Positions 734 to 30,807 of a stretch of DNA of 31,331 nucleotides are shown here, in pieces. Numbering within the stretch: position 1 is the stretch's first letter; every line of letters begins with the position of its first letter. The notes below the pieces were generated by a model that worked only from the letters and a program-made list of their open reading frames with translations, had not been told where the DNA came from and did not search any database. The DNA is from a virus. Its lineage: Duplodnaviria > Caudoviricetes. Location of the stretch: IMG/VR virus record IMGVR_UViG_3300030376_005329, positions 1 to 31,331 of that record. One strand, 5' to 3'. A program made the position numbers and the translations under genes.

Positions 734-739
734 TAAATA
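734..739 (+). promoter_or_regulatory. TAAATA late-promoter-like box upstream of hairpin RNA A
   Basis: TGTAAATA, intergenic, 5 nt before a 12-bp stem. Confidence 0.55.
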
Positions 740-744
740 CTGTT

Positions 745-808
745 GGTTGCTTGGCACCCTATCGATACATAGTTGCCATACTACAATCCTAAAGAATGCT
801 GGGCAACC
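745..808 (+). ncRNA. Putative small hairpin RNA A
   Basis: Stem 745-756 (GGTTGCTTGGCA) / 797-808 (TGCTGGGCAACC): 12 bp with 3 G-U pairs that form only on the + strand; 40-nt loop. Confidence 0.55.
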
Positions 809-861
809 TCACTCCAAAACACACCTTTAAACGCACACAGAGCCACGCACAAAGAAAAAAT

Positions 862-891
862 TTGACATCCTGCACAGTTGGGCTATATACT
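862..891 (+). promoter_or_regulatory. sigma70-type promoter TTGACA-18-TATACT with upstream A-tract
   Basis: Read directly; no credible CDS downstream. Confidence 0.7.
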
Positions 892-897
892 TGTGAA

Positions 898-1310
898 TCA
901 GGCAACTATAGGCACAGATAGGCACACAAACAATTTCCCACAAGGCGACATAGCAACAACAAAACGTACCCAAGAGTTGATCACAACCTCTGATTGTGTA
1001 GGCCAGTTGCGGCTGAACTTGTTAGGCTTTGACAAGCAAATCTATGAGCAGTCATGCTGACGCACTTTGATGACTTTTGTGTGTCAGGCTTTGTACACTT
1101 GGACTCAAGTCAACCACGGTTCACCTGGTGTGTGCAATGACGGAAGTCGGAGGACCCAGTGATGGGTTTGGTAAGATACGAAACACCCTCTACCACAACG
1201 CTTGGATGTAGTGAACCTAACTGGAGAAGATTTTGCTAAAAGTCTTCTTGCGGCGAAGCAGAAAAAGAAAAAAGACGTCAGTCTTTTTTGAGTGAGTGTA
1301 ACTCACTCCC
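898..1310 (+). ncRNA. Putative ~400-nt structured non-coding RNA and/or replication origin region
   Basis: No credible ORF. Many stems (CTTGTTA/TGACAAG, CTGACGCAC/GTGTGTCAG, GGTTCAC/GTGAACC, GAC-GGAA-GTC), bounded by a promoter and a hairpin cluster. Confidence 0.45.
1262..1289. terminator. Probable bidirectional terminator-like hairpin AAAAAAGAC-GTCA-GTCTTTTTT
   Basis: Perfect 9-bp inverted repeat with T-tracts on both strands, where convergent transcription units meet. The stem is AT-rich and weak. Confidence 0.5.
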
Positions 1311-1338
1311 ACACTGCCACCCCGGACTGTTCCGATAA

Positions 1339-1413
1339 GACCCAGTGCCCCAATCCAGAAAAAATGTTTATAGCCAGGGCACCGAGTCGTCCCGTATTTT
1401 GGAGATATAGGAC
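1339..1413 (-). ncRNA. Putative two-hairpin small RNA B
   Basis: TAAATA at 1419-1424 (minus), then 5 nt, stem 1413-1405/1397-1389 (loop CUCCAAA) and a 14-bp stem 1388-1375/1352-1339 with 4 G-U pairs valid only on the minus strand. Confidence 0.55.
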
Positions 1414-1421
1414 ACTGGTAT

Positions 1422-1649
1422 TTAACGACCATAACTGTGACTACAGAAGCGGCACTTCAAGGTCCTAACACCACGCCAGTAACGGGCCACATAGCCGGAA
1501 TGGCGATTGCGCCTGCAGGTGGGCACACGTTTGGGTGCTATCCAGTCGTGTTCGGTGCTGATCCGGTTGGGACCTTTGTGGCTCTCACGCGGTGGCCTAC
1601 GTCTGTAGCCCAACTGTTCAAGTCGCTGTTGGAATAGATGGGGTTTCAT
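1422..1649 (-). CDS. Small basic hypothetical protein (75 aa), possible Zn-binding C-terminus (C...H...CxxC)
   Basis: GAGGT RBS and TAAATA box upstream; the stop codon overlaps the next TAAATA. Confidence 0.6.
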   Translation of the reverse strand: MKPHLFQQRLEQLGYRRRPPRESHKGPNRISTEHDWIAPKRVPTCRRNRHSGYVARYWRGVRTLKCRFCSHSYGR

Positions 1650-1668
1650 TGCTCACTGACCTCACCAG

Positions 1669-1678
1669 TATTTAAATA
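1669..1678. promoter_or_regulatory. Palindromic TATTTAAATA: divergent pair of late-promoter-like boxes
   Basis: Sits in the 36-bp gap between divergent genes 1422..1649 (-) and 1686..2207 (+). Confidence 0.65.
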
Positions 1679-1685
1679 GATCCAT

Positions 1686-2207
1686 ATGCACAGTGGTAAA
1701 AAGGCTATCGTTTGGTTCAATGGTCCGTCGGCACGACAGTTATGGGACATGGATCCATGTCACGTGGAGATAGGTTGCAATTTCATCCAACAGCACCGTG
1801 ACGTGGATCACGTGTGTGCGTATGACCGACCGTGCATAGAAAAGATCCAGCAGAGTCCGGGTGTGCAGTACTGGACCAGGCACGCACTGCGATCAGACAC
1901 CTGGCCAGCACCAGAATCCAGATTCCAACCATTCGACAGCGGCACATTGGCCGTTGTGGTGGCACACCAACTGCGTGTGGAGAGCATGTACATCATAGGT
2001 TGTGATTGGCAACACACCAACGAGAGCGTGTTCGATAGGGCCTACACCTGGAGGAACTACCAGCCCAAGAAGGCCAGCCTCCCCAAACAGAAATTGCTGG
2101 AACGCATAAACCTGTCAGTGCCCATAACAGTGGTCACGGATCGCCCGTGGAGGATGGAGGTGGATTTCATCCGACCCAAAGAATTTTTAAGAGATATTAG
2201 GAACTAG
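1686..2207 (+). CDS. CstII/Maf/MptE(DUF115)-like transferase, putative glycosyltransferase (173 aa)
   Basis: Motif series AIVWFNGPS...IGCN...D...DSG..A...A..L....MYIIGCD resembles this family. It is the only clear + strand gene. Confidence 0.65.
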   Translation: MHSGKKAIVWFNGPSARQLWDMDPCHVEIGCNFIQQHRDVDHVCAYDRPCIEKIQQSPGVQYWTRHALRSDTWPAPESRFQPFDSGTLAVVVAHQLRVESMYIIGCDWQHTNESVFDRAYTWRNYQPKKASLPKQKLLERINLSVPITVVTDRPWRMEVDFIRPKEFLRDIRN

Positions 2208-2628
2208 GTACTTCAGTGTTGTCGTCGAAGTATCTCCACACACCACCGGAGTAGTATGCGGGTTTTGTTACCGTGGAATCACCATCGCTCATCATGGCCA
2301 TCATTCCGTCTGCCAAGTTGCTGACAGCGTAGGCCGCCGTCCTTGTGATGGGATTGAGTTTGATGATGTCTTCTACTGCCACAATGCCAGTGGCAGGATC
2401 AAGTGTCAAGTCAGTTGAACCGCTTGAGTTGATCTCGTCCGGCATCTGTGCTGAAGGTATCTTGGTGTCAGCGTCCAATGAAGCCACGCCATTCACGGCG
2501 CCCCTACCATTGATAACATTCTGTAATTCTAAAAGTGCGTTTAATAATTCAACCCTCGCTTGTGCCGGTGAATCATCAGCACTGTCAAGGTGTGTTGTTG
2601 TTACGTTTCCTACTGTGGCCCAAGCCAT
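2197..2628 (-). CDS. Small tail-tip/fibre-associated protein (143 aa)
   Basis: AAGGAG RBS; NGVASLDADTKIPSAQ and ITLDP-type fibre motifs; last gene of the tail operon. Confidence 0.7.
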   Translation of the reverse strand: MAWATVGNVTTTHLDSADDSPAQARVELLNALLELQNVINGRGAVNGVASLDADTKIPSAQMPDEINSSGSTDLTLDPATGIVAVEDIIKLNPITRTAAYAVSNLADGMMAMMSDGDSTVTKPAYYSGGVWRYFDDNTEVPSS

Positions 2629-2655
2629 ATGTTGTTCTCCTTGTGTTGTTTGTAT

Positions 2656-5652
2656 TTAAACTACTTCCCACCTACCCAACTGTAAATCAGTTACAAATTC
2701 CTTACTGCTGGTGTGTGTCTCCAGACATCTCCATCTCCTACGATTGTGTAATCTGTATTGGTCCTTGGTCTGTGTGGCGAAACGCACCCATGGTGCGATG
2801 TCTGGTCCTTGGCCGGACTGACCACCCCTGGTTTTGACAAGGGTTTCATCTACCTTGTTGAGATCATAGTGTTTAGGATTACCAGAACCCTCTATCCTGA
2901 ATATTTCAAATGCACTGCCAGAACTGAGGTAGGTCTCGCCCAAGAGGCTGTGTGCTATCAAAGGTATGCCAAACACAGTGAATGTGCTGTTCTCATTGGC
3001 TGTCTTGAACACAATGCTGGACCTCTCACGTGAGATGTAGTTGGTGCTGAGTGACTGTGTGTTTCTTGCACCAGCGGTCAGCCTGTTGTAGCCTGGGGGA
3101 ATCCCACCAGCCCAAAATATCCTGTTGTCTGCCTCTGACACATCACTTACAAACCATATCTTCCATTTGGCCCTGGTCACATCACTACTACTGGTGTGGG
3201 TGACGCCACCAATGGACGCAAACAGTTGGATGGATCGTAATTCATCTGCGGCCATCACACTGTCAGCACTGATGGCAAAACTGGTAGTGTCAGCACTGTC
3301 TAATGTTAAAGGTAAACTGTCGTCTGTGCCCGCGGACGGACTGTGTCCGTTGAGGCCAAAAAATGCCTCGATTGCTGGTGGTGCCTCAGATGAACTGTCA
3401 GCACGTTCTATCTCTGACACATTAACATACAAGGTACCATTTGTTGGTAGGTCTAGATCTACGAAGATTGGCGCGGCTCTGATGCCCGACGAAGAAGTTA
3501 CGTTAGTGGTGTATGTGGTAATCACTATGGGATCATTCACGTCACCACGTGGTGTGGTCTTGGTCTGGATGGTGTCTGTGAAACTGCCAAAGTATTCCTT
3601 AACGGTCTGTTCCGCCTGTCTTTTGCTTGGCAAACCAAAACTGCTGGGTGATCCACCCGAGAAGCCCGCCGCACCTGACCTCTCTATTGCGGGCCTGTAC
3701 ACAACCTCTTCGTTGGCATCGACATGCTTGATGTCAGCGAACGGTGATAAAAAATTGACCAATTTGTGACCGAGATCCTTGATGTAAGGCTCGCCGCTGG
3801 CGTTTGGTGTGATGATGTATCCGGGTGTGTGTAAAGACAGTGTTCTACTTGTTGAAGTGTTTATAGGATTCGTCAATCCTGTATCCGCGAACAGTTCTAT
3901 CTCTGTCGTGCTCCTGACCTTGACATGGCTGATACCGTGCAATTTGTGTGCGTCAAAACCATCCATATGCCCTGTACTGCCAGTGCCCTCATTTGGGTAA
4001 CTGTGTGGATTCCTAAACAGTCCTGGCCTAACCATTATCTTGTCTCCATCGGACAGACCGTGTGCGGTCCTTGTGGTTATGATTACACCCGCGCCTGATG
4101 ATGAGTTGTCGCTTATTGAACTAATCATCTTCGTGTTGGTATTGGCCAGTCTAAAATCGTGATCGAACCTTAGAGATGACGCATTGCTTTTTTTGAATGA
4201 ATATATCCCGCCCTCGTACACGGTTGAACTGTTGTCACTGACCTCGTAGTAAGGCAGTCCCATGAAGAAGCGTCTTTCACTGTTGTTGTTGGTTTCTAAT
4301 TCCTCTGCCACCAGTTGCTGGTCGATCGAATATGCGATCTGTAGGATTCCCCTTGGCCTCATGCCTTGATTGTATTGTGAATTGCTTGAAAGTGAATCAA
4401 CTTTTGTAGTATCCAATAGCGATTGGCTTTCTGTTATCTGTTCTGCGGGAAGATAACCTGCACTGGGTAATGTCAAACTGTAATTGGTGCTGGACGTCGT
4501 GATCAGACCACTGCCAAACGGTCCATCATTTTTCAATTCCGTTATTGGATTGAGATCTGTGATCAATGCGTGTCTATTTGAACCATTTGCTGTTGGAGTC
4601 CAAGCGTTGAACTGTGTGGTCGCACCGCCCAACTCATCTCGCCCTTGTCCATAGGCACATAAGAAACCATCCGTGGTGGTAATGTCAAGGTTCTTGAAAC
4701 CAGTGACCGGTTGGTCAAAAGCAATCGAGCCTGTTGTAACTTCTATTTGACTTCTTGGATTTATCCACCAGTATTCCCAATCACCCCATGTCTGTGGTAT
4801 CAACTTCAATTGTCTTGGTTTTGGTGCTGTAGACCCTTCGCCTTCGTTGAAGAATAAACAGATTAAAGTGTTTATGTCCCAAGCCGTATTATCGGAGCCG
4901 TCAAACGTGGGATCCATGTCAATCAGTTGTCTGTCAGTGCTAATACCAAGTCCCACTGAGTGAACATTCTGTGTCAAGAACGCATCCTTCCTTATCCTGA
5001 AAGCATCAACCTTAGCACTCAACAAGTAGTCTCCTGTGCTGTTGCCACCTATCACAAAATTGTTTGAAGTGTTGGTGATGCCTGCACTGGCTGACGTAGT
5101 GCTGTCCAGTACGTTGTTGATGTAAATTTTTATCTCGCTGTTATCATACACGATCTTTACGTCGTGGAAGTCATCGATGCCTATCGTGGCAGTAGATGTG
5201 ATCGAATTCAGTGTTGAACCGTCATTGTAATAGAATTTAAACTTTCTGTTGGCATCTATGGTGCCTGCGTAATCAACCGTCCTGCTTGATCCATCATCCG
5301 TGAGTAATCCGCCCTCTCCGGCGGCAAACACCACACCTTCGTGTGCTGTCTGGAAGTTTGTGGTTGAAGTGCTGTCTGAGTCTATCCTGATATAGAAATC
5401 AATTGTCCAAGCGGATCTATTTGATAGCCTTAACGCATCGGTGTAATTGATACGCCAGTAACCTGCGTTCTCTGGCGTGAATTCTGTAGTTCCTGTACCG
5501 TTGAGGCCATCGCCAGCAGAGAGTGTTACACCTCCAACTGCTGTGATCGTGAAGTATGCGCCACTGCCGTTGCCTAGGTCATCCCAACGACTGAAATCTA
5601 TTGGGAAAATTATGTTATCTCCTGTGTCTCTCCATCCTGATGTGATTGGCAT
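2656..5652 (-). CDS. Large virion protein with LamG/concanavalin-A-like lectin domain (998 aa)
   Basis: WTIDFYIR...FHDVKIVYDNSEIKIYINN...FVIGG...VDAFRI pattern; ITTRTAHGLSDGDKI motif common in virion proteins; follows the tail tip gene. Confidence 0.75.
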   Translation of the reverse strand: MPITSGWRDTGDNIIFPIDFSRWDDLGNGSGAYFTITAVGGVTLSAGDGLNGTGTTEFTPENAGYWRINYTDALRLSNRSAWTIDFYIRIDSDSTSTTNFQTAHEGVVFAAGEGGLLTDDGSSRTVDYAGTIDANRKFKFYYNDGSTLNSITSTATIGIDDFHDVKIVYDNSEIKIYINNVLDSTTSASAGITNTSNNFVIGGNSTGDYLLSAKVDAFRIRKDAFLTQNVHSVGLGISTDRQLIDMDPTFDGSDNTAWDINTLICLFFNEGEGSTAPKPRQLKLIPQTWGDWEYWWINPRSQIEVTTGSIAFDQPVTGFKNLDITTTDGFLCAYGQGRDELGGATTQFNAWTPTANGSNRHALITDLNPITELKNDGPFGSGLITTSSTNYSLTLPSAGYLPAEQITESQSLLDTTKVDSLSSNSQYNQGMRPRGILQIAYSIDQQLVAEELETNNNSERRFFMGLPYYEVSDNSSTVYEGGIYSFKKSNASSLRFDHDFRLANTNTKMISSISDNSSSGAGVIITTRTAHGLSDGDKIMVRPGLFRNPHSYPNEGTGSTGHMDGFDAHKLHGISHVKVRSTTEIELFADTGLTNPINTSTSRTLSLHTPGYIITPNASGEPYIKDLGHKLVNFLSPFADIKHVDANEEVVYRPAIERSGAAGFSGGSPSSFGLPSKRQAEQTVKEYFGSFTDTIQTKTTPRGDVNDPIVITTYTTNVTSSSGIRAAPIFVDLDLPTNGTLYVNVSEIERADSSSEAPPAIEAFFGLNGHSPSAGTDDSLPLTLDSADTTSFAISADSVMAADELRSIQLFASIGGVTHTSSSDVTRAKWKIWFVSDVSEADNRIFWAGGIPPGYNRLTAGARNTQSLSTNYISRERSSIVFKTANENSTFTVFGIPLIAHSLLGETYLSSGSAFEIFRIEGSGNPKHYDLNKVDETLVKTRGGQSGQGPDIAPWVRFATQTKDQYRLHNRRRWRCLETHTSSKEFVTDLQLGRWEVV

Positions 5653-8132: not shown

Positions 8133-8731
8133 TATTGTTTACCCCATTGTATGTCCGCCAGTGTCTCTGTGGTGAATTCGAATCCTTTGTCGTCCTCGAA
8201 CACTATCTGGTGGCTCAGTGTGGTTGCGTATCCGTAAATGCTGGCCTTCTCGAAGGCACTGAAAGGACCTCCACACTCTAGTCTGAAATCTGCTGTTGTT
8301 TTGTCGTGTGTTAGACTGAAAGTGTTGATGAATCCTTCGAACACAGAATACACACCGTTGGTGGTGATGCTGTAATCCTCGTTTAGGATCGCTTTCCTGA
8401 TGCTTACCTTGGCGCCAACGAAGTTGGAATTCAACAGGATTGTTGGGTTTGTCAGGTCAACACCAGTGAACACCAGTGACAATTTCTCATTGGCCGCATT
8501 GACCGTTTCCGTTATCGCACTGTGTCCTATGTAACCAGCATTGGCGCTGTAGGTCACAGAGTCATGTGTAAGGTTCACATCACAGTTGGTGAAATCCAAT
8601 GAATTGGTACCGTTGGTCAGGACATTGAACAGCGTACTGTCGTCCTGTGAAACTATCCGCACAAGGTCAACAACCCTACGTGTCTGTGCCGCTAAGGCCG
8701 TGTTCGCCGCTGAAGATATGCCCCTTGTCAT
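8132..8731 (-). CDS. Baseplate hub / minor tail protein (gpL/DUF2163-like, 199 aa)
   Basis: MTRGIS... start and DKGFEF...DIQWG end; position between Dit and J-like genes. Confidence 0.7.
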   Translation of the reverse strand: MTRGISSAANTALAAQTRRVVDLVRIVSQDDSTLFNVLTNGTNSLDFTNCDVNLTHDSVTYSANAGYIGHSAITETVNAANEKLSLVFTGVDLTNPTILLNSNFVGAKVSIRKAILNEDYSITTNGVYSVFEGFINTFSLTHDKTTADFRLECGGPFSAFEKASIYGYATTLSHQIVFEDDKGFEFTTETLADIQWGKQ

Positions 8732-9330
8732 TACAACGTCTCCGCTACATCTAGTTCATATTGGTATAAATTGTCAACCCCTAAATCAAACTCCTGTGCG
8801 TCATTGATGAATCTGACAGTGATTGGTACATCGTCTGTCAAGGTGTTCTGTGATGATGGCACCTGTGTCCTTAGGTTTGGAAAAATATTGATCGTTGTCT
8901 GTGTTGAATTGCTCAAGGTCTTGTCAGCAGTCAGCATGTAAACTTTTGAATGATTTGCGAACTTGATGAGGTCACCGGCTTTCAGTGTGCCACTGCCAGT
9001 TGGTGTGACCGTTATGGTACTCGCCCCCACCGCCGCTGTTGATGTCACAGGCAGTTTTGTGCCGTCATTGACGAACGTGCCATTGGCACTGCCAATCACT
9101 GGAGGAACGATGGTGAACGTGTCAAACGCACCCCTCTGTGTGACGATGAATGCTTGAATGCTACCAAAGTCATCCCTTGATAACGGTACGCTCTTCAATG
9201 TGAAACTGAAGAATTGACCTCCAAGATCTTTGGAAAATGTCTTGTTGGTTATAGTGGTGCTGACAATGGTGTTAGCATTGCTCTGCCAATTGATTGATTT
9301 AAAATTAGTTGTTGGGAATGTTCCTGACAT
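8731..9330 (-). CDS. Distal tail protein (Dit-like, 199 aa)
   Basis: Directly after the tape measure gene; LKAGDLIKFANHSKVYM...IFPNLR motif. Confidence 0.7.
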   Translation of the reverse strand: MSGTFPTTNFKSINWQSNANTIVSTTITNKTFSKDLGGQFFSFTLKSVPLSRDDFGSIQAFIVTQRGAFDTFTIVPPVIGSANGTFVNDGTKLPVTSTAAVGASTITVTPTGSGTLKAGDLIKFANHSKVYMLTADKTLSNSTQTTINIFPNLRTQVPSSQNTLTDDVPITVRFINDAQEFDLGVDNLYQYELDVAETL

Positions 9331-11288
9331 TACGCAAATCTCCTTCCTTGCCTGCTCATTGCATCGCTTATTAGATTAGTTATTAGACCCCGCCTGCTGG
9401 CCAACAAAGTGTCGAAACCTTCGGCATCCACCGTGCTGATGTTGAAGTTTACTGTGGCTCCACCCATCCTGCTTCCAGAAGCCTCGTTTGAGACAACTGT
9501 GCCCGCCGTGTTAGGTATGAATAATTCTGGTCCTCTTTCTCCTACCAAGAACGCATTACTGCCGCCAACTGGTCCACCGCTCGCTCTTGCACCACCGTAG
9601 CCTATGGCACCACCATTGGCATGTCCAACAGCACCACCGTTAGCAAATCCGCCTCCTAAGAAAGCCAAAATTGTTTTCAACACGATTGTTTTTTGTAATT
9701 GCCTGTTTAAATTTTTTTGTGCATCTACTTGTCTGTTGACACCAGCGACCATGTCAATGCCAAATATTTTGGCTAGTTTTTCTAATATAGGTCCAACTAT
9801 GAACAATCTAATCATGCCACCGATCAGATCTCTGAGGATGGCCTCTCCAATTTGTCCAAGTGCTTCTTTCAATGTTTTGGTTCCCATTACCACATCAGTC
9901 AATGCTGATTCTGTTGTAGAAGCAAAAGTCTGTGTCATGCTTGTTAGTGTGTCTGTTATGATAACGGCCGTGTCATATTCTTTCAACATCTCTGTAAGGT
10001 TGTCTCTATAATTTCGTAACGCTTTGTTGGCGGTCTTGACAGATTCTGAAGTTTTAGGAAAAGTCCTGTTCATTATGGCAGTTTCTCTGTTCACTGCCGC
10101 GGCCTCATCTGCTTGTTCTTTTAATAGTTCTGCGTTGGTCCTTCCTTCGTTCTCATTGTAGTCACCTAATGCATCTGTTAAACCAAGTGTAGCATTTATA
10201 GTGTCATTTAAATTATTGCCTAGTTCTTCAGTTTCAAATGCCATTTCGCTTAACTGCGGAATAACTGGGTCTGTGTCTCGAAGTAGTGCTTTAAAACCAT
10301 CACCAGTCATGTTGAGATCAGAATTTAAGCCACTGAAATCTTGGCTTACATCTTCGGTATCTTCTTTAACGTCTTTGAAGAATCCGATTAGTTTCTCCCC
10401 ACCAACAACGACCGCTCCCAATGCCTTTGCGAATCCAATGAATAGTTTGACCACTCCCTGTAATACTGCTCCGCCTAATCTACCAAGCGCCGCTATCGTT
10501 TCTTCGTTGTTCTCAACGAACTTTGTTAGATCCGCAACAGCCTCTTTCAATGGTGGTGATAAACCTTCTCCGAATTCCATTGCTGAATTCTTCAGGGCGA
10601 TGTTTAAGTTTGAAAACTGTGTTGAAAGGTTATCTACAACGTTGGCTGTGGCACCACCAAAATCTTGACGCAATCCTTTTGAAAGACCATTGAGTAATTT
10701 TTTAGATCCCTCTGCGGTTTTACCCATTTCAGATATCTCTAATCTTGTGACTCCAACTTGTTCCTCAAGTATCCTGAATACCGGCACACCCCTGTCAGCC
10801 AATCTGTTTAGTTCCTCTAGACCCAATCCACCTGATGTGGTCCTCGCAAATAGATCAGTTATGGCCTGTAATGAACCAAGTTGGTCAGTTGTAACCGCCG
10901 CTGTGTCTGTGAATAGTGTTAGTAGGTCTTCTGTGGGTTCGATACCCGATGCCTTCAATTTAATGAAGGTTGTGGTTAAATCTTCAACTCCAAACTGTGT
11001 CTTGGTGGCGAATTCACTGACGAAGTCAAATGCTTCCCCACCGGCCTGTGCTGATCCTGTTACGGATGCCAGTGCATCATTTAAATCTTCAAATCTTGCA
11101 GTGGTTTCAATAATGGACTTACCAATCCTTACAGCGAAAACAGCCGCAAGTGCAACACCGGCACCTTTGAGTGCCGTGCTTAATTTAAAACTGCTCTTTT
11201 GTATCTTGTTGATGTCACGATTAATTTTACCCAACGCCTGTTGGTTCTTAATCTGTATATCTAACAACAGTTTTTCAGTTTTAGCCAC
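9330..11288 (-). CDS. Tail tape measure protein (652 aa, GTG start)
   Basis: Helical A/L-rich sequence; tape-measure domain (LEELNRLADRGVPVFRIL); C-terminal RASGGPV...VGERGPELFIP. Confidence 0.93.
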   Translation of the reverse strand: MAKTEKLLLDIQIKNQQALGKINRDINKIQKSSFKLSTALKGAGVALAAVFAVRIGKSIIETTARFEDLNDALASVTGSAQAGGEAFDFVSEFATKTQFGVEDLTTTFIKLKASGIEPTEDLLTLFTDTAAVTTDQLGSLQAITDLFARTTSGGLGLEELNRLADRGVPVFRILEEQVGVTRLEISEMGKTAEGSKKLLNGLSKGLRQDFGGATANVVDNLSTQFSNLNIALKNSAMEFGEGLSPPLKEAVADLTKFVENNEETIAALGRLGGAVLQGVVKLFIGFAKALGAVVVGGEKLIGFFKDVKEDTEDVSQDFSGLNSDLNMTGDGFKALLRDTDPVIPQLSEMAFETEELGNNLNDTINATLGLTDALGDYNENEGRTNAELLKEQADEAAAVNRETAIMNRTFPKTSESVKTANKALRNYRDNLTEMLKEYDTAVIITDTLTSMTQTFASTTESALTDVVMGTKTLKEALGQIGEAILRDLIGGMIRLFIVGPILEKLAKIFGIDMVAGVNRQVDAQKNLNRQLQKTIVLKTILAFLGGGFANGGAVGHANGGAIGYGGARASGGPVGGSNAFLVGERGPELFIPNTAGTVVSNEASGSRMGGATVNFNISTVDAEGFDTLLASRRGLITNLISDAMSRQGRRFA

Positions 11289-11474
11289 TATCTTCTCCTC
11301 CTAACAGGCATTGCTTGTTTGCCCATTGTTTTTTTACTTTCATTGTACTCATGCAAAAAGTAACCAGCCCAGAGGTCTTTCTCCAGTGTCGTCATTTGTA
11401 ATATTTCCTCGATTGTTTTCTTCAATCGATCTGCCAGCATTATTACAAATCGTAACTCAACACTGGAACCTATT
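11288..11474 (-). CDS. Tail assembly chaperone C-terminal extension (gpT-like), -1 frame relative to 11470..11814
   Basis: Manual translation: ...ELRFVIMLADRLKKTIEEILQMTTLEKDLWAGYFLHEYNESKKTMGKQAMPVRRRR*. It fills the gap exactly up to the tape measure start and is not in the ORF track. Confidence 0.8.
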
Positions 11475-13181: not shown

Positions 13182-13183
13182 CG

Positions 13184-16502: not shown

Positions 16503-16514
16503 CTATCTCTCCGA

Positions 16515-20037: not shown

Positions 20038-20039
20038 TG

Positions 20040-21520: not shown

Positions 21521-21545
21521 TGGGTAAAACTCCGGTTAGACTTGA

Positions 21546-21950
21546 TTAGTCTATTGTGATAGTAAGTGAGCCAGAATTTATTTGAAACGTGTCTCCATCG
21601 GAAATAACACGAGAGGCACTCAAAGCGCCATGCGCCAATAAGTTTCCAGAACTGGCCGCATCAAAGATACCAATGTGTGTCACTGTGCCAAAAGCACCAC
21701 CTGATGCTGTTGGGAATGTGATGTCTGCGTTACTCACGATCGAACTGTTGTCTGATCCTGTGGTTGCTGATGCCATTTTGGTGTCCATTCTTACTCTTGC
21801 ATAGCCGTTTCCTGAACATTCCGTACCAGACGCTGAGTCTGTTGGATCTGATGTGAAAAGGGCCATGTGTGCTTGAGGCGAAGTGAAGGACGTGTTCTTG
21901 AAAAAAAGTTCTAGTGTCTTTCTCTCGCTGTACGAACTTAATGCTGTCAT
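21546..21950 (-). CDS. Small fibre/collar virion protein (134 aa)
   Basis: ALFTSDP...E.SG.GYARV...ITFPTA...GTVTHIGIFDAASSGNLL, a widespread phage structural motif; AGGAG RBS. Confidence 0.75.
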   Translation of the reverse strand: MTALSSYSERKTLELFFKNTSFTSPQAHMALFTSDPTDSASGTECSGNGYARVRMDTKMASATTGSDNSSIVSNADITFPTASGGAFGTVTHIGIFDAASSGNLLAHGALSASRVISDGDTFQINSGSLTITID

Positions 21951-21989
21951 TTATATTCTCCTAATTAGGTTTGTTTGTTATAACAAACA

Positions 21990-21995
21990 TATTTA
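21990..21995 (-). promoter_or_regulatory. TAAATA late-promoter-like box
   Basis: Intergenic TGTAAATA upstream of the 21950 gene and the packaging operon. Confidence 0.6.
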
Positions 21996-22022
21996 CACAA
22001 TCATGTGTAGGTTAATGTATTG

Positions 22023-24260: not shown

Positions 24261-26854
24261 TATGCTGTTCCTCCGTCTATGGTTGGTACTGACGTGTATG
24301 TTGAGTCAGCAACACCGCCGTCGATATTTATAGCAGTGGGATCTCTGAAACTTAAAACACCTGATCCATTAGTACCCAATACTTGATTTGCGGATCCATC
24401 CGCGTTGGGCAGTGTGTACACTGCGTTGATGTTGACTTTGCCTGTGCCCGCCGGGTTCAAAGTGATGTCTGCGTTGCTGGGTGATATCATTGTTGAGCCA
24501 ACGAATGTTATGTCTCCGGTGCTGGCACTACCACCTGACTGTGCCACGAAACTTAAATTGCCTGATCCATCCGTTTTCAAAACTTGGTTGGCTGATCCAT
24601 CTGATGTGGGCCAGTTCAATCCATCCAGCACGATGTTGCCCGTTCCGGCAGGTGTGATTGTTATATTCTGATTGGCTGGTGCATTGGTACCATAAGCACT
24701 GGTTGATTTAATTACAGGCCCACTTGCAGGCAATTCTATTGCCAGCGATCCACCACCATTTGTTTGGCTTGTGAATTGGATATCTGCGTTTACATCTTTG
24801 ATTGTGTGTCTGATATCTCCTTCATCTTCGTAAATGGTGAAGGCACCGGTTTGTGATCCATGAGATCCAACAGTTAAAGTCTGTCCTGCACTCCGGTTTG
24901 TTATTTGGCCATTATTCGAACCACGTCCAACCTTAATAGTAGGACCAATTGTAATAGTACCACCTCCTGGTGCACCGGTAAGAACCGCATCGACTACAAC
25001 GTCTCCGGTACCACTTGCTGATATTTCTAAATCGGCATTTGATTGACTTGTTGAAATTGTGTTGTCTACCAATGATATTGCTGAAGTTGTTAAGTCTCCA
25101 GTAACATTTGTGTTGGCGTTTAATTCTATTGTGCCAGTACCGCTTGGGTCTAGTGTAATTGCGGCGTTGCTTGGAGAAATAAGTGTTGATCCAACCGCTG
25201 ATAAATCACCCAACGTTACACCACCTACCTGTGAATCCACATATGTTTTAATTGCTTTTGCTGAAGCAAGTGTATCGTCTGAACCACTGACACTTGAAAT
25301 GTCTGTGTCCAACACTCCCGACTTCAGGTCAGCAACATCTATGTTTGATATTGAGTTGCCAGTTCCTTCAACATCAAATGTTTTGTTGGTCAATGTCAAT
25401 GTGTCTGATGCAATTGCGGCATCCTGTGTGTCAACGTATGCTTTTGTAGCCGCGTCTTGTGCCGAAACAGGATCTGTGACATTTATGATCTTGTTTGAAT
25501 TCATGTTGGCCTGTGATAACATTGAGATGTTACCTGTACCGTTCGCCAGTAGTTCAAAGTCCTCGTTGGATGCATCTGTAAACATCTTGTTGCCTGACAC
25601 AACGATTGTGCCTGAACCTAGGTTTAGATTCCCGCTTGCGTCTAATGTAATGTCACCCGCCGCGTCTATCCTAATGTTTCCCTGTGATGAATTGACGCCT
25701 TCTGTCTGTAACAACAACGATCCGTCTAGAACTTTTATCTTCGCACCATTATTTCCATCACTCGCTTTATTGAATTCAATAATGGGATCTGCATTTGAAT
25801 CCAATCTAATCCTCATGTCGCTGGACGTTGATCCATCCGCGGAGAATGGTATATCCATTGCTGTGAAATTTTTCCTGCCCCCACTATTACCGACTGGATC
25901 TTGGAACGTGATACCAGCAACTTTAACTCTGCCGCCACCGCCGTCACCTGTTGAAAGTGTTCCAGCATTACCTATCTCTACAAGTCCTGTACCACCTTGG
26001 TGTGGTTGTATGTAGATGTTGTCGTTGGCACCATCACCTATTGAAATGCTACCTGAGTTGGTTCCTGAGTTGGTGTTTAAAATTAAACCGTGTGCACCAT
26101 TGGATGTGAGCGTGGCATCTCCTGATCCGCTACCAACAAAAATTTTGCCTGCCGCGGCGCCTGGCTTTAGGAATATTTCACCCGACTCACCTGAACCGTT
26201 GGCTGGGCCTGCCATCACCTTGACCTCACCTGCGTCAGCGTTACCGCCTATCAGTGAAAGGTTCTGTCCAGTACCACCTGTTACCGTGGCATTGGCCGCC
26301 CCGCTGGCCCTGTCCTCTCCAACCCGCACGTTACCTTCTAATGCAACAATGCCTGTGTTATTGGTCTGCAGGATCAAATCATCATTGGTCCTTGTTGCTT
26401 TTATGTTGTTGTCGTGTATCTCTATGCCGTCCGTGTTTAGGCTTCCTGACGCTGTCAGGTTGCCGGTTACATTTGTGTTAGCGTTTAATTCTATTGTGCC
26501 TGTACCACTTGGGTCAAGTGTTATCGCGGCGTTGCTGGGTGAACTGATCGTTGATCCTATGGCTGTTAGATCTCCAAGGCTGTCACCACCAGTTGCGTTG
26601 ATTGTTAGAACTCCCGCTGAATCCGTTGATGTGGTAACATTTGAACCACCCTGTATGTATAATGTGTCACCTGCCTTGACGTCCAATGTGCTGGAGTCAT
26701 CCGCAACCACCCCAATGGCACCATTCTTCAATTCAATGAAGTTGGAGTCCATCTCCGCGAAGGTTAGTTTACTGCCCTTGTTTAAATTCTGTGTTGTGTT
26801 GCTTGATGTGGTCTCTGATCGTGTTACGATCTTGGGTGTGCTTGGCATTGACAT
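24260..26854 (-). CDS. Long tail fibre protein (864 aa, MSMPSTPK...)
   Basis: KGSKLTFAEMDSNF N-terminal motif, DPVSAQDAATKAYVD, DGSANQVLKTDGSGNLSF repeats; AGGAG RBS before the ATG at 26854. Confidence 0.85.
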   Translation of the reverse strand: MSMPSTPKIVTRSETTSSNTTQNLNKGSKLTFAEMDSNFIELKNGAIGVVADDSSTLDVKAGDTLYIQGGSNVTTSTDSAGVLTINATGGDSLGDLTAIGSTISSPSNAAITLDPSGTGTIELNANTNVTGNLTASGSLNTDGIEIHDNNIKATRTNDDLILQTNNTGIVALEGNVRVGEDRASGAANATVTGGTGQNLSLIGGNADAGEVKVMAGPANGSGESGEIFLKPGAAAGKIFVGSGSGDATLTSNGAHGLILNTNSGTNSGSISIGDGANDNIYIQPHQGGTGLVEIGNAGTLSTGDGGGGRVKVAGITFQDPVGNSGGRKNFTAMDIPFSADGSTSSDMRIRLDSNADPIIEFNKASDGNNGAKIKVLDGSLLLQTEGVNSSQGNIRIDAAGDITLDASGNLNLGSGTIVVSGNKMFTDASNEDFELLANGTGNISMLSQANMNSNKIINVTDPVSAQDAATKAYVDTQDAAIASDTLTLTNKTFDVEGTGNSISNIDVADLKSGVLDTDISSVSGSDDTLASAKAIKTYVDSQVGGVTLGDLSAVGSTLISPSNAAITLDPSGTGTIELNANTNVTGDLTTSAISLVDNTISTSQSNADLEISASGTGDVVVDAVLTGAPGGGTITIGPTIKVGRGSNNGQITNRSAGQTLTVGSHGSQTGAFTIYEDEGDIRHTIKDVNADIQFTSQTNGGGSLAIELPASGPVIKSTSAYGTNAPANQNITITPAGTGNIVLDGLNWPTSDGSANQVLKTDGSGNLSFVAQSGGSASTGDITFVGSTMISPSNADITLNPAGTGKVNINAVYTLPNADGSANQVLGTNGSGVLSFRDPTAINIDGGVADSTYTSVPTIDGGTA

Positions 26855-26903
26855 TATCTCCTGTTGTGTTGTAATCGTTGTCTTCGATACAACTGGTTGC
26901 AAT

Positions 26904-26910
26904 TATTTAT
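26904..26910 (-). promoter_or_regulatory. ATAAATA late-promoter-like box at the start of the structural region
   Basis: Intergenic, 50 nt upstream of the fibre gene start. Confidence 0.65.
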
Positions 26911-26933
26911 TGCTGAACAGGAGTCATAATGCT

Positions 26934-27476
26934 TTACTTTTTCTTCTTCTTGAGATACCAACCCCACACGTCCTTGAAGTTGCTGTACTTGTCCGTTATG
27001 AGGTCAGGGCTCTGTTTGAGGTCCTGTTGTTCCTGCTCGCCGTCCCTCCTGACGTCATTCAACCTCTTGACCAACTGCCTGCTCAACATGGGTTTGTCGT
27101 CTGAGATGTTGCGTGGCACGAAGTAGTCTGGTATCTTGAGTCCAGACCCGGTGACCTGCTCACAGGCCCTATCAACCTTGACCAAGGCCCTCATCAGTTT
27201 CTCCAACTGTGATTCTGTGGTGTCCCTGAACCTGCCGCCCCTGTGTATGGGTCCTATGTTGTGTGCAATTCCTGGTATCACCCCATCATCATGTTGGTTC
27301 CAACCAGGCAACAGATTGTGTGTCATGAGTTCAGTGATGTCTTCCTGTATCTTGGTCAGCCAATCATAGGCCTCAAGCCTCTCCCCAACTGTCTCGCCTA
27401 TCAGCATGGTGGCCTGATGGAACTTGCCCTTGGCGTCCGAATAGCCACCGGTCTCTGGTGTGTGTAGATATGACAT
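26934..27476 (-). CDS. Hypothetical protein (180 aa)
   Basis: AAGGA RBS; 1-nt gap to the upstream gene. Confidence 0.75.
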   Translation of the reverse strand: MSYLHTPETGGYSDAKGKFHQATMLIGETVGERLEAYDWLTKIQEDITELMTHNLLPGWNQHDDGVIPGIAHNIGPIHRGGRFRDTTESQLEKLMRALVKVDRACEQVTGSGLKIPDYFVPRNISDDKPMLSRQLVKRLNDVRRDGEQEQQDLKQSPDLITDKYSNFKDVWGWYLKKKKK

Positions 27477-27477
27477 G

Positions 27478-27687
27478 CTAGTCCTTGATGTATGGTTCTT
27501 TTGGTTGTTGTGGTGATTCAGGTGCCTTTGGCGGTTCTGGTTGCTCCTGTTGAATGATCTGTATCACCTTCTGGTGCAGTGTGCCCACCGCCGCCATCTC
27601 AGCGGCACCAAACGCACCCCTCCTCGCGGCCACGTCAAGCGCCTGTGCTATTATCTGGTAGTCCTGCAGTACTAGTGTCTGTTTCAT
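27478..27687 (-). CDS. Conserved small phage protein (69 aa, LDVAARRGAF.A.EM..VG.L)
   Basis: AAGGAG RBS and its own sigma70 promoter; motif recalled from large dsDNA phages. Confidence 0.75.
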   Translation of the reverse strand: MKQTLVLQDYQIIAQALDVAARRGAFGAAEMAAVGTLHQKVIQIIQQEQPEPPKAPESPQQPKEPYIKD

Positions 27688-27705
27688 TTGTTTTTCTCCT
27701 TGTGG

Positions 27706-28198
27706 TTATTGTTTGTTTTTCAGTTTATTATAACGTATTCCAGCCAATCCGTCAAGCACACCACTCTCCTGCAGTGCCTCGGCGTCGTTGTCTCGCAGTC
27801 TGGCCAATCGCTGTTCATTGATCAGGCACACCATCTGTATCTCCTCCGTGGTGTATGACTGGTTCTCTATCAACCATGCCAAGGGTTTAAGCCTCTTGAT
27901 CTGGTGTGGATCTATGGTGTCCTCCAACCTCGGCAGTTTCTGCTCTTGCCTGCTCCTGATCAGTTTCAGTATGTCCTCGGCCCTCTGTGCCGAATCCTGC
28001 TGTTCCCGGCTGTGCAGTTCGTCCAGCAGTTGCTTGAGCCTTTTCCCTTCTGCGGTGTTCGGCCTTCCAGTTGTTCTTGGCCTCTTCGTTGGCCTGCTTC
28101 TTGATTTGTCTTTCATGTTTCTCCTTCTGTTGTTGTGATTCTATCATTGCCCTCACGAACTGATCGTTGAGGTGTTTGCTTCGTACGTGGTCAGTCAT
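27706..28198 (-). CDS. Hypothetical helical protein present as two overlapping frames (27887..28198 and 27706..28116); possibly one frameshifted gene
   Basis: The upstream frame is protein-like until GGGAAAA (28041-28047) and the downstream frame is protein-like after it. Confidence 0.5.
27727..27755 (-). promoter_or_regulatory. sigma70-type promoter TTGACG-17-TATAAT
   Basis: Read directly upstream of the 27687 gene. Confidence 0.75.
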
Positions 28199-28700
28199 GT
28201 CGCGGTCCCCCACCACGCTTCCATTGTTGGCCTCGTGCCTTGGATCCCAGTCCCTTGGGCCTGATCCTGTGTTTGTCCCGGGTGGGCCTACGCATGGCGT
28301 CTATCCTACGCATCAGCCTCACGTTCCAGATGTGCCAGCCTTCACGGGTGTCCACACGTGTCAGGTTCAAGGCCTCTGAGTCCCTGCTCCACTCTCCCGG
28401 TGCCGTCTTCAACAGGTCCAGGTAGTCCTCCCACAGTATGGTCCATTCCTGGCTCCAGAATCTGGCCTGTGCCCGGGCCCTGCTCCACCTCCTGCGGTGG
28501 TCCCTGACCTCGGGATCCGGTCCCGTCAACCAGGTGTCAGGACTGGGTCCTGACCTGTGCATTATGTGGTACTTTTCCGGGTTCTCCCGTATCCGCTCAC
28601 GTTGCCGGTCACTGGCCCACTGGCGCCTCTCCGCGGTCCATCCGGCCTCCAGGCCTGACAGCCCCTTGTTCCAGGGTCGGTTATTCTTCTTGAATGGCAT
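28191..28700 (-). CDS. HNH-like (beta-beta-alpha) endonuclease/DNA-binding protein with NUMOD3-like PWNKG motif (169 aa)
   Basis: RARAQARF..QEW.I.WEDY...LTRVDTREGWHIWNVRLM resembles phage HNH variants; GGGAGG RBS. Confidence 0.55.
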   Translation of the reverse strand: MPFKKNNRPWNKGLSGLEAGWTAERRQWASDRQRERIRENPEKYHIMHRSGPSPDTWLTGPDPEVRDHRRRWSRARAQARFWSQEWTILWEDYLDLLKTAPGEWSRDSEALNLTRVDTREGWHIWNVRLMRRIDAMRRPTRDKHRIRPKGLGSKARGQQWKRGGGPRHD

Positions 28701-28872
28701 TGATCCGGTCCTCCCGTTGGCAGTTGAATCTGACGCACCTCCACTGATCCGGCAGGATCACCCACAGCCAGTTGCGGAGTGGCTGTATAACGATCCAGTG
28801 GCCCCGTGCCGCATCCAGCGAGGTGCTGGTGTGGGGTGCGTTTAAAAAAAATTTGGGCAGTTGATTCTGCAT
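28681..28872 (-). CDS. Hypothetical protein (63 aa, MQNQLPKFF...)
   Basis: AGGAGG RBS; promoter immediately upstream. Confidence 0.65.
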   Translation of the reverse strand: MQNQLPKFFLNAPHTSTSLDAARGHWIVIQPLRNWLWVILPDQWRCVRFNCQREDRINAIQEE

Positions 28873-28897
28873 GTAGTTGCCTCCTATTGTTACTGTG

Positions 28898-28931
28898 TAT
28901 TTAGTGTAGCAGGCGCAGGCCGGTGTGTCAA
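28898..28931 (-). promoter_or_regulatory. Overlapping sigma70 promoter (TTGACA-17-TACACT) and CTAAATA box
   Basis: Minus strand TTGACAcaccggcctgcgcctgcTACACTAAATA. Confidence 0.7.
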
Positions 28932-28987
28932 CCTGGTTCGGCAGGCGATTTTTTTTTGCGTCCAGCAAAAATTCGCGTTCGTTCTGA

Positions 28988-29323
28988 CTAGGCTGGTCCA
29001 GTGAATGCCGCGTCCATCAGGCGCTTCTCTTCTTTGGCCAGATCTGGCAACACCTTGCTATACCATAACGGCAGTTTGTTCTCTATTGGTATCTCAACTG
29101 CATATGTCACTGTGGGCCAATGTGCCAAAAAACCCGTCTTATCCTTGAACCCATCTGGCAAGGGATTGTTTTTGGGATCCTTACGGTGTTGAGCCAAACG
29201 GTCAAGCCATACTTGCAATATGAATTTTGCGTCTGTGTGTGTGATGTCGATGTCTAATGTGTCAACCACCTGGTTTGTTATTGGGTCTATGACCAATGTT
29301 TTTTTTGTGTTTTTCTTTGTCAT
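28988..29323 (-). CDS. Hypothetical early protein (111 aa)
   Basis: AAGGAG RBS; consensus promoter upstream. Confidence 0.8.
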   Translation of the reverse strand: MTKKNTKKTLVIDPITNQVVDTLDIDITHTDAKFILQVWLDRLAQHRKDPKNNPLPDGFKDKTGFLAHWPTVTYAVEIPIENKLPLWYSKVLPDLAKEEKRLMDAAFTGPA

Positions 29324-29346
29324 TGTTTTTCTCCTTTGTTAGTATG

Positions 29347-29374
29347 ATTATAGCACGGATTGGTGCAGTGTCAA
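29347..29374 (-). promoter_or_regulatory. sigma70-type promoter TTGACA-16-TATAAT with extended TG
   Basis: Read directly. Confidence 0.8.
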
Positions 29375-29741
29375 CCTACTCGGAAAAGTTGCTGTATTTT
29401 TACAGCGTATATAGGGCAAGTTACCAAACCAATTTCAATGGCCACCCCCCACCGTTCACCACCATGGGTCACCGTTGGGCCAGGATCGAGTCATTTCCTA
29501 CACGATTACCACCGGTAAAGGTTGATTGGGCGGTAGATACGGTGGTCCAACCTGGTCCATTCTGGTTCATACGGCGGGTAAGGTCCGGAATGTGGCTGAT
29601 ATCAGGTGTTGGTAGAGAATGGTAAGGGAGATGCCAAACCCTAGTATCATGTCCGACCTTATCCACGATATCTTGTGCTCCTTTACACTCGTATGACAGC
29701 GTCGTATTGGCTTATTTGTAGGGGTAATGTTGTGGGAAAAC

Positions 29742-29769
29742 GCAAGGAAACCGTTTGTTATTTCCTTGC
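29742..29769. terminator. Hairpin GCAAGGAAA-N10-TTTCCTTGC after the 29777 gene
   Basis: 9-bp perfect inverted repeat followed by GTTTT on the minus strand. Confidence 0.5.
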
Positions 29770-29776
29770 CTGTTGA

Positions 29777-29956
29777 CTATGCTTTCTTCTTGATCAAGTG
29801 TTCCGTCATAGTCTCGAGAGCGGTGGCGATCCTTTGTGTGTTCCAACTGATGTTGTGTATCTCTGATTCAACATCGCTGGGCCATTCACCCAAACACCTT
29901 GTGTTGTACTCAATGTTCTCGAGTGCATCACATATGCCTTTGATTTGCTCTTCCAT
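29777..29956 (-). CDS. Hypothetical early protein (59 aa, MEEQIKGICDALE...RIATALE)
   Basis: AAAGGAG RBS; promoter upstream. Confidence 0.75.
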   Translation of the reverse strand: MEEQIKGICDALENIEYNTRCLGEWPSDVESEIHNISWNTQRIATALETMTEHLIKKKA

Positions 29957-29978
29957 GTGTTTTCTCCTTTCATATGTA

Positions 29979-30007
29979 ATTGTAGCACACACGGGCGGCA
30001 CAGTCAA
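29979..30007 (-). promoter_or_regulatory. sigma70-type promoter TTGACT-17-TACAAT with extended TG
   Basis: Read directly; similar to the 669-697 promoter. Confidence 0.75.
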
Positions 30008-30021
30008 CTGTGTTTGGTAAT

Positions 30022-30282
30022 CTAAACAGGTCTCCGCAACTCCGCCCAAACTATCTCCCTACGCAACCATTCCGGACAGCGTTCATCTCTGTACAGCATC
30101 AGTCTCAGTTCTCTTGTGGTGATGAACTCGTCTGTGGGTATCATGGCTTCGTCTCGTGTCAAGGGATTAACTATCACTGCGTTGATGCTACGTTGATGCA
30201 GTTGTGCGGCCATGTGGTCTTCTATCTCTTGCAATGACTGGTACAGATCTATGTGTTCCCACAGGTGCTCCAGTGTGGTCAT
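30022..30282 (-). CDS. Hypothetical protein (86 aa)
   Basis: ORF begins immediately after the TAG of a 13-codon leader ORF. Confidence 0.65.
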   Translation of the reverse strand: MTTLEHLWEHIDLYQSLQEIEDHMAAQLHQRSINAVIVNPLTRDEAMIPTDEFITTRELRLMLYRDERCPEWLRREIVWAELRRPV

Positions 30283-30324
30283 CTACCCCGACGCTGAATC
30301 GCCATTTATGATTGTTTGACTCAT
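30283..30324 (-). pseudogene. 13-aa ORF MSQTIINGDSASG, possible remnant of a DNA methyltransferase gene start
   Basis: GGGAGG RBS and CTAAATA box (30364-30370). IINGDS resembles the first motif of N4/N6 beta-class methyltransferases. Confidence 0.4.
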
Positions 30325-30385
30325 TTGTTTTCCTCCCGGGATAGCAGTCAGTTTGTATAGGGATATTTAGGAGGATTGGGCTCCA

Positions 30386-30490
30386 TGGCGGCAGAAAGGA
30401 GTCATATCGTGCAAGGAGTATGAAGAACTGCCGCCAGGATCTGGACGTGACTTATAAGTTGGGCACGTGTAACGCCTGACTACACGTCCA
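30386..30490 (-). ncRNA. Putative two-hairpin small RNA C with anti-Shine-Dalgarno loop
   Basis: TAAATA at 30496-30501, then 5 nt, perfect stems TGGACGTG/CACGTCCA and TGGCGGCAG/CTGCCGCCA. The second loop has ACUCCUU twice. Confidence 0.6.
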
Positions 30491-30498
30491 AATTCTAT

Positions 30499-30807
30499 TT
30501 AATCTATAACCGAGTGGCCCCTGCCCCTAAGGCACTGGTTCACCCTCTGCTTGTACTTGCTCTCACGCTTGGGCACTATGCCCAGTGTGGCGTAGTGGAA
30601 GTAGGCACCCCATCCCTGGTTCAGTGTGTCGTAGATCCTGAAGGTGTTGTCATCAGCATAGGTCTTGCAGTGCTGTATGTCGTTGGTGAGCCTTTCCGCC
30701 TGTGTGTCGGGGAATGTGCCTGATCGGCCCACGGTGTCAATCTTAGGATTGTAACTACACGCTGTGAGTGAGATCAACCCAATCACGGTCACTATTGTCT
30801 TGTTCAT
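30499..30807 (-). CDS. Small lipoprotein (102 aa)
   Basis: Signal peptide and lipobox MNKTIVTVIGLISLTA-C; AAGGAG RBS; conserved-looking C...CL.GRG. Confidence 0.8.
   Translation of the reverse strand: MNKTIVTVIGLISLTACSYNPKIDTVGRSGTFPDTQAERLTNDIQHCKTYADDNTFRIYDTLNQGWGAYFHYATLGIVPKRESKYKQRVNQCLRGRGHSVID

Follow-up and report, generated by a model that had tools for sequence, protein, structure and literature searches.

Hairpin units of the genome

We analysed the virus record IMGVR_UViG_3300030376_005329 of IMG/VR (Duplodnaviria, Caudoviricetes), which represents a marine siphovirus; its whole length of 31,331 nucleotides (nt) is called the window below. Bases 1-419 of the window recur at 30913-31331 with few differences and an independent contig (L082) spans the junction, therefore the genome is a circle of 30,912 bp. 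Three units, A, B and C, each with a TAAATA box followed by one or two hairpins, were found where the initial annotation had placed them (Table 1). On the evidence of sequence comparison, they are real, conserved and undescribed hairpin RNAs. The first hairpin of unit B (B1) is complementary to the translation start of the phage's own tail assembly chaperone gene, and the two sites change together among relatives, which makes this start the predicted target of B1.

Table 1. Positions of the units and of the features discussed with them.
Feature	Position	Strand	Remarks
130-aa (amino acid) first gene of early operon	134..542	-	gene 526-134; Shine-Dalgarno (SD) sequence GCAAGGAG (542-535); candidate C2 target in the window
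Sigma70-type promoter of early operon (130-aa gene, 81-aa gene, lipoprotein)	669..697	-	divergent from unit A; both hexamer regions kept in relatives
TAAATA late-promoter-like box, unit A	734..739	+	invariant in 9/9 aligned versions
Unit A hairpin	745..808	+	12-bp closing stem, loop of ~40 nt; invariant AGTTGCCAT (anti-AUG GCA ACU), mostly conserved ATCCT (anti-AGGA)
Sigma70-type promoter (11 of 12) of variable cargo slot	862..891	+	54 nt downstream of unit A; conserved
Predicted RNA D, structured non-coding cargo of ~400 nt	896..1289	+	start inferred from promoter; insertions and deletions break frames
Bidirectional terminator-like hairpin (1268-1289) and adjacent hairpin	1268..1308		between RNA D and unit B
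Unit B hairpin 2 (B2)	1339..1388	-	long GC-rich stem
Unit B hairpin 1 (B1)	1389..1413	-	ATATC(T)TCC arm and loop, invariant columns in 12/12 close versions
TAAATA box, unit B	1419..1424	-	overlaps stop codon of 75-aa gene (1649-1422)
Tail assembly chaperone gene, 114 aa	11470..11824	-	gene 11814-11470; SD region GGAGATATA (11824-11816), predicted B1 target; PHROG 344, E 3.8e-5
Unit C hairpin 2 (C2)	30386..30436	-	invariant loop CTCCTTGCA; stems replaced between relatives
Unit C hairpin 1 (C1)	30442..30490	-	invariant CACGTG (30469-30464) and TTATAAGT within CTTATAAGT (30458-30450); both cores palindromic
TAAATA box, unit C	30496..30501	-	
102-aa lipoprotein-like gene	30499..30807	-	stop codon is first half of box C; GCAAGGAG present in the start region of most relatives but absent from that of the window

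All three units folded better than their shuffled versions (A, -19.5 kcal/mol, z -3.07; B, -31.2, z -5.23; C, -34.9, z -3.14). Among 20 contigs there were 14 distinct versions of A, 16 of B and 8 of C, and close relatives have them in an unchanged gene context, whereas the context of distant relatives is rearranged. In B and C the box shares its first bases with the stop codon of the preceding gene (1424-1422 and 30501-30499), and the ATA past the stop codon is kept in all aligned versions (12/12 for B, 8/8 for C). Each unit has its own late-type box and a conserved structure with no conserved reading frame, as expected for a trans-acting antisense small RNA (sRNA).

The anti-SD words CUCC or UCCU or the anti-AUG word CAU occur in four of the five window loops, as the initial annotation said. 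It also claimed a spacing of exactly 5 nt between box and stem, which is right for A of the window and for the core of B1, but not for C, whose stem reaches +3/+4 in 8/8 versions. The first paired base is at +6 in 6/14 versions of A, 3/16 of B (with a short fold window) and 0/8 of C, and the sixth base past the box is G in 13/14, 16/16 and 3/8 versions, respectively. The strand of A and B had been taken from G-U pairs. Folding energy agrees for B (box strand -31.2, opposite strand -20.1); for A energy alone gives no strand preference (-19.5 vs -21.9), but three positions of the 3' arm switch only between G-U and Watson-Crick pairs. Unit C folds better on the opposite strand (-40.6 vs -34.9), so that the box alone sets its strand.

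The units had been presented as one candidate family. Instead, A, B and C are three different RNAs with a common design and do not form one sequence family. Stem covariation with variable loops was the pattern proposed for them; the stems indeed covary or are replaced, but the loop words are fixed. In unit C, 11/16 pairs change on both sides and 0-1 of 500 shuffles reached this, with the structure derived from the same alignment, and CACGTG, TTATAAGT and CTCCTTGCA are kept. Unit B keeps ATATC(T)TCC and has double changes in 2/16 pairs. Double changes in unit A (1/12 pairs) are not above shuffles; AGTTGCCAT is invariant in the close group (9/9), and in distant members this loop word sits in stems of entirely different sequence.

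No named RNA family was recognised in the units, in agreement with the earlier view. With the covariance models of Rfam 15 (including C4, ctRNA and phage motifs) they stayed below gathering thresholds: the whole window had one weak match, located elsewhere, and the best scores were 14 bits against a threshold of 50 at 700-1450 and 16 against 83 at 30350-30520. A tRNA scan gave no match. Terminator scans listed none of the five hairpins, and there are no U-tails past the stems. Units of the A, B or C type were not recognised by motif in the cultured pelagiphage HTVC111P or in 40 low-GC contigs (10 scattered motif matches among 1364 boxes). More distant marine and freshwater members have other orphan box-hairpins, some of them with anti-start loops.

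Unit B and the tail assembly chaperone gene

The fixed word of B1 is complementary to GGAGATAT at the phage's own chaperone start in the window and 10 relatives; this start differs in G007, G008 and the distant G012/L030. We took the first 19 nt from 5 nt past the box as the B1 fragment and ranked its pairing among the 14-54 own gene starts of each genome. Excluded were G006, which has the B1 and start region of G005, G007, which has no B1, and G012/L030, which have a different hairpin. B1 ranked its own chaperone start first in seven of the eight genomes and second in G003, and shuffled B1 reached the observed energy on the chaperone start in 0 of 100 trials in 7/8 genomes. The cognate pairs summed to -139.0, whereas permuted pairs gave -118.3±6.5 (fraction 0.0024; 0.033 with the five less related genomes). 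Among 1272 starts of T4-like phages, 0, 1 and 0 were better B1 partners than the chaperone start in three genomes.

B1 and the chaperone start also change together. Genomes with GAGGAGATATAA have TTATATCTTCTC (14-15 bp), and genomes with ATCAGGAGATATA have ATATCTCC(C/T)GAT. The 5' end of B1 is GTTCA where the chaperone starts ATG AAC (G001, G002 and G008; not L031), and it is GTC where the chaperone starts ATG ACA (the window). In G007 the chaperone start lacks the motif and the genome lacks a B1-type hairpin.

Several observations weigh against this pairing. The eight genomes make up about three clades, therefore the permutation value overstates their independence. We settled on the 19-nt fragment only once longer ones of 22-23 nt had been tried; with these, 7/9 genomes ranked the chaperone start first, G008 second, and G003 outside the top four. 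The window has the smallest margin of the first-ranked cases (-15.7, next start -15.1); 10/100 shuffles of its B1 matched some own start equally well, and 16/1272 T4-like starts paired at least equally well. GGAGAT is a common SD context, present at about 10% of T4-like starts. In the metagenomic phage DSL-LC06 (OR003941) the motif is present at the chaperone start, but no orphan hairpin ranked this start first. The first scan of own starts, done with long loops, gave nothing above shuffles, and the B1 signal emerged only when relatives were compared. Even so, covariation supports the chaperone start as target of B1: the predicted pairing shows conserved, covarying complementarity to a distant start, as an sRNA and its target should, in few independent clades.

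Relatives keep both the last part of the chaperone gene (GCAAAGGAATAR) and what follows its stop codon (11288-11470, minus strand), a pattern that would fit a G/GT-type frameshift or read-through.

Units A and C and the early transcripts

The loop of C2 ranked the start of the lipoprotein gene 1, 1, 1, 1, 2 and 3 in six of seven genomes. The sequence GCAAGGAG occurs in 10/204 starts of the family and in 0/735 T4-like starts. As points on the other side, the lipoprotein start of the window ranked only 27th, with the 130-aa gene of the same operon 2nd, and 6-35 of 1272 T4-like starts (0.5-2.8%) paired with C2 equally well by energy. Targeting of the phage's own early lipoprotein operon by C2 is thus a weaker prediction than the B1 pairing.

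The fixed TTATAAGT of C1 (30450-30458) was also present upstream of 15/121 T4-like portal starts (L331-L450). There it is apparently a TATAAGTA variant of the late box, and C1 is possibly a promoter mimic.

The sigma70-type promoter next to unit A has different cargo among nine relatives: RNA D in four (the window, L096, L015 and L034), open reading frames (ORFs) starting ATG GCA in four, and another sequence in one. RNA D had no Rfam match and only chance matches by BLASTn against GenBank phages, and 5/119 of its predicted pairs have double changes (4 sequences). The predicted RNA D is a mobile cassette, and other relatives have ORFs in its place. Its 5' end (901-909 and 917-921) is complementary to loop A. 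Predicted pairing of loop A with the 5' end of the sigma70 transcript next to it was present in 9/9 relatives in spite of the different cargo, at -12.5 to -21.9 (reached by no more than 2/200 shuffles), and in L012 it covers both SD and AUG. This targeting is also the weaker kind of prediction: another partner often outdoes the cognate neighbour, the match is sometimes of 8 bp only, and RNA D has no AUG. The shared transcript start may simply belong to the promoter module.

Two further features were seen here. Fourteen nt of the unit A loop of L034 nearly repeat a stretch within RNA D, in the same sense. A TTTAA-CGCACA-A element (822-845, plus strand) between unit A and the sigma70-type promoter is present in 9/9 relatives and is a candidate cis site.

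TAAATA boxes as probable late promoters

In marine T4-like phages the late promoter, which gp55 reads, is NATAAATA (PMC2984593). The circle holds 18 TAAATA boxes, and 12 of them have an SD and ATG within 75 nt downstream, while the same count for 14 permuted hexamers was 37/222. The bias was also found in 12 contigs of the family (43/119; permuted, 168/1680), in DSL-LC06 (7/17; permuted, 75/744) and in the T4-like phage HTVC008M (26/186; permuted, 304/3990), and there was no bias in the cultured relative HTVC111P (5/79; permuted, 102/1320). The boxes precede virion genes (fibre, scaffold and head-tail) and also a 143-aa gene. By its position, TAAATA behaves as a T4-type late promoter box. Because the phage uses it with no recognisable sigma factor of its own, a sigma factor borrowed from a helper is the simplest reading.

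Small early genes carry sigma70-type promoters, and some promoters of this type point into the virion operon. The palindromic TATTTAAATA at 1669-1678 forms divergent late boxes of the 173-aa and 75-aa genes and is kept in close relatives.

Gene content and dependence on a helper

Among the 47 ORFs of the window, PHROGs and Pfam identified genes of terminase, portal, scaffold, capsid, neck, tail tube, chaperone, tape measure, Dit, hub, central fibre and side fibres. The same searches gave no match to polymerase, primase, helicase, initiator, sigma, endolysin or integration genes. NCBIfam on 23 window ORFs showed no replication, sigma, integration or lysis function, nor did Pfam on 44 accessory ORFs, selected from the 120 listed for 13 relatives, which instead had DNA methylases, FkbM-type methyltransferases, HNH proteins and one RNA-polymerase alpha-CTD-like domain. 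The last is in an early gene of L019 (8302-8712; Pfam E 2.6e-8) and is a possible transcription decoy. With the three databases, the sole sigma-type candidate signal was the helix-turn-helix of the terminase small subunit.

Proteins of 180, 136 and 69 aa are kept among relatives and have no family match. The family of the 180-aa protein is limited to 13 clusters at 50% identity; it had no viral fold match and no Atlas match, and a low-confidence model (predicted local distance difference test, pLDDT, 60; best Z 5.7 to generic helical bundles) was uninformative. For the 169-aa protein, Atlas leads pointed to NUMOD3/HNH-type clusters. A 13-codon remnant of a DNA methylase gene (30283-30324, minus strand) lies behind its own TAAATA box (30369), and the same slot holds intact methylases of 428-543 aa in relatives. 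No close relative was found among 185,579 genomes; six distant alphaproteobacterial or proteobacterial prophage loci have only tail genes in common with the phage and no TAAATA bias.

Most likely the phage is a satellite that supplies a complete virion itself but borrows late transcription, replication and lysis, and its dependence on a helper is likely. On the other side, several small early proteins have no assignment, and HTVC111P-type phages are described as growing with no DNA polymerase gene (10.1101/2019.12.14.876532), therefore missing replication genes alone are no proof of helper dependence.

Proposed role of the RNAs and other explanations

We lean, by a little over even confidence, to the explanation that the three units are small antisense RNAs made from T4-type late promoters, which fire only through the late sigma of a co-infecting T4-like helper, and that they act mainly on the phage's own RNAs. 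On arrival, a few sigma70 genes and RNA D would be expressed from host sigma70. A T4-like phage would then supply gp55, and the virion operons and the three RNAs would come on together. T4 late transcription begins about 6 nt past the box; if transcription of the units also begins about 6 nt past TAAATA, the RNA 5' end would therefore be tucked into the stem. The C/U-rich loop would seed on the SD or AUG region. B1 would unzip over the start of the chaperone gene, the first gene past the major tail protein and neck gene, and damp tail assembly, perhaps with the low-copy tail genes behind it by coupling. C2 and A would close transcripts made from host sigma70 before the helper (the early lipoprotein operon and the cargo slot, here RNA D), and the unused anti-AUG/anti-AGGA half of loop A would probably have a second, outside target in the helper.

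Two results speak against this explanation in general. For the loops of A, B2 and C no consistent own target was found by start-site and whole-contig scans; own portal and terminase, tried as targets of A and B2, were inconsistent across relatives. And no sequencing run recorded as RNA contained the stretch, with three metatranscriptomes giving no transcripts of the units; in relatives, parts of A, D and B are covered by contigs of one run, which may be of DNA. The earlier reading as late antisense sRNAs is matched by conserved structure, covariation, anti-start loops and predicted targets in the phage itself. Of the targets it named (helper, host or own early mRNAs), own mRNAs stand, with a late structural gene as best case and early transcripts weaker, but helper targets were sought and not found, and no host target was found, in searches that had no known host from which to take genes. 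The new point is that the best-supported predicted targets are the phage's own RNAs.

A different explanation, which we consider rather unlikely, is that the RNAs are aimed mainly at helper or host mRNAs, as SviR (see below) is in part, and that the own matches are side effects. Loop A read backwards gives a complete start site (AGGA, a spacer of 3-8 nt, ATG GC(A/G) AC) which is absent from the window genes, and its anti-AUG word is invariant even where the neighbouring RNA has no AUG. Genes starting with ATGGCAAC occur among T4-like virion genes (gp13, gp6, gp14, gp19, gp27 and VrlC) and in 0/33 window genes. The anti-start loops of distant freshwater members also fit. Loop A was compared with GenBank phages, IMG/VR, three T4-like genomes, 80 T4-like loci, 75 gp6 starts and 116 portal starts. 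Better pairing of loops with T4-like starts than with shuffles had been proposed as a check; it held slightly for A overall (nine A loops, top-5 mean -24.2, flank-shuffled -22.6±0.6), with one good single pair between the L031 loop and a gp6 start (-31.6), but no gene family held up. The lead of gp19 (-1.06, shuffled -0.99) was composition. The portal gp20 was weak (-0.89, shuffled -0.58±0.13 on 9 starts; about 0-2 standard deviations on 116). gp6 (75 starts) and gp15 were inconsistent, and gp13, gp14 and the three whole T4-like genomes gave no consistent target family. BLASTn of loop A against GenBank phages gave chance matches only, and the exact anti-A pattern was present in IMG/VR at nine loci, four of family members and five of unrelated genes. 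B1, moreover, fits the own chaperone better than nearly all of the 1272 T4-like starts. The T4-like set leans to SAR11-type phages, and the true helper may be missing from it.

It is improbable, in our judgement, that the RNAs and targets are as described and the phage is autonomous, with an unassigned early protein (e.g. the conserved 180-aa protein) as its own TAAATA late factor and replication by host enzymes. Growth of HTVC111P-type phages with no polymerase, the conserved unassigned proteins and the sigma70-type promoters pointing into the virion operon fit this idea. Opposed to it are the absence of sigma-like matches beyond the terminase small subunit, the narrow distribution of the 180-aa family, and the comparison with HTVC111P itself, which has both an endolysin and an initiator, neither found here, and lacks the TAAATA bias.

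Very unlikely, finally, are hairpins acting as DNA or cis elements (origin, packaging or protein-binding sites, terminators, folds of 3' untranslated regions) with anti-start words as remnants of inverted duplications: B and C directly follow stop codons, C folds better on the other strand, the two palindromic words fixed in C1 resemble the sites bound by dimeric proteins on DNA, and a phage with no replication genes needs a cis origin, but the G-U/Watson-Crick switching in A and strand bias in B point to RNA, U-tails are absent, loop words are kept while stems are replaced, and B1 has matched changes with a site 10 kb away.

With antisense RNAs acting mainly on the phage's own RNAs as the preferred explanation, a wider speculation, which we hold tentatively and short of even confidence, is that a widespread, undescribed class of siphoviruses, marine as well as freshwater, lives as full-virion satellites of T4-like myoviruses. 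Its members would wait in the cell on host sigma70, sense the late sigma of the helper, and use a switchboard of hairpin RNAs that shuts the genes of the waiting state, rations their own tails and silences a virion gene of the helper.

Comparison with known systems

SviR of the Vibrio cholerae PLE resembles the predicted RNAs as a satellite sRNA with a helper-induced promoter (inferred here) and pairing near ribosome-binding sites; it has targets in the satellite genome and also in the helper, of which only the former kind was found here (10.1101/2022.04.08.487710). SviR is described in that report as one RNA of 160-300 nt of an integrated, capsid-borrowing island, whereas the present phage has three hairpin units of 64-105 nt, a complete siphovirus and T4-type late boxes; the two are likened by description, not sequence. 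The C4 antisense RNA of phages P1/P7 is a phage RNA which pairs in trans with an own transcript and gates a developmental switch (PMC8201110). Unlike the units, C4 guards lysogeny via the ant antirepressor; here the boxes are late, the best target is a tail gene and there is no Rfam C4 match. The Streptomyces satellites Mulch and Flayer have own encapsidation genes, lack key replication genes, and one is not integrated (PMC10690885); their hosts and helpers are different and the abstract names no RNAs, while the genome studied here carries a complete module for head and long tail, together with late boxes of T4 type, and helper dependence is a likely trait. The likeness to SviR, C4 and Mulch/Flayer is one of function or gene content, and the units match no Rfam family.

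A literature search, which most subscription papers lay outside, brought up no account of RNAs of this kind, nor of satellites that combine T4 late promoters and an entire virion. If the proposal is true, there is a hidden class of parasites of T4-like marine phages, recognisable from sequence by TAAATA bias and lack of replication and lysis genes. B1 and the chaperone start would be one of the rare cases of a phage sRNA and its target changing in step from genome to genome, and throttling of the tail assembly chaperone by RNA would add a new means by which tail assembly is timed or rationed.

Among cultured phages, the HTVC111P-type pelagiphages (MN698245 and kin) have the nearest virion module (terminase 44%, portal 43%) and a small lipoprotein with 41% identity; in contrast, they were cultured on SAR11, have DnaD-domain and lysozyme genes and show no TAAATA bias. 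Nearest in overall layout is DSL-LC06, of the proposed 'Nanhuiviridae'. It has about 30 kb, the same order of virion genes, 32-55% identity of head and tail proteins, no annotated replication or lysis gene, TAAATA bias and orphan box-hairpins, but these hairpins have no loop word in common with A, B or C. The main text of its paper does not have the words 'satellite' or 'promoter' (PMC10611076).

The phage of the window, DSL-LC06 (L108), L005-L008 and L022-L030 belong to a broad marine and freshwater family of siphoviruses of ~30 kb. Its members have TAAATA boxes, and in the sequence parts available no gene for replication or lysis was recognised. This family is a candidate satellite class.

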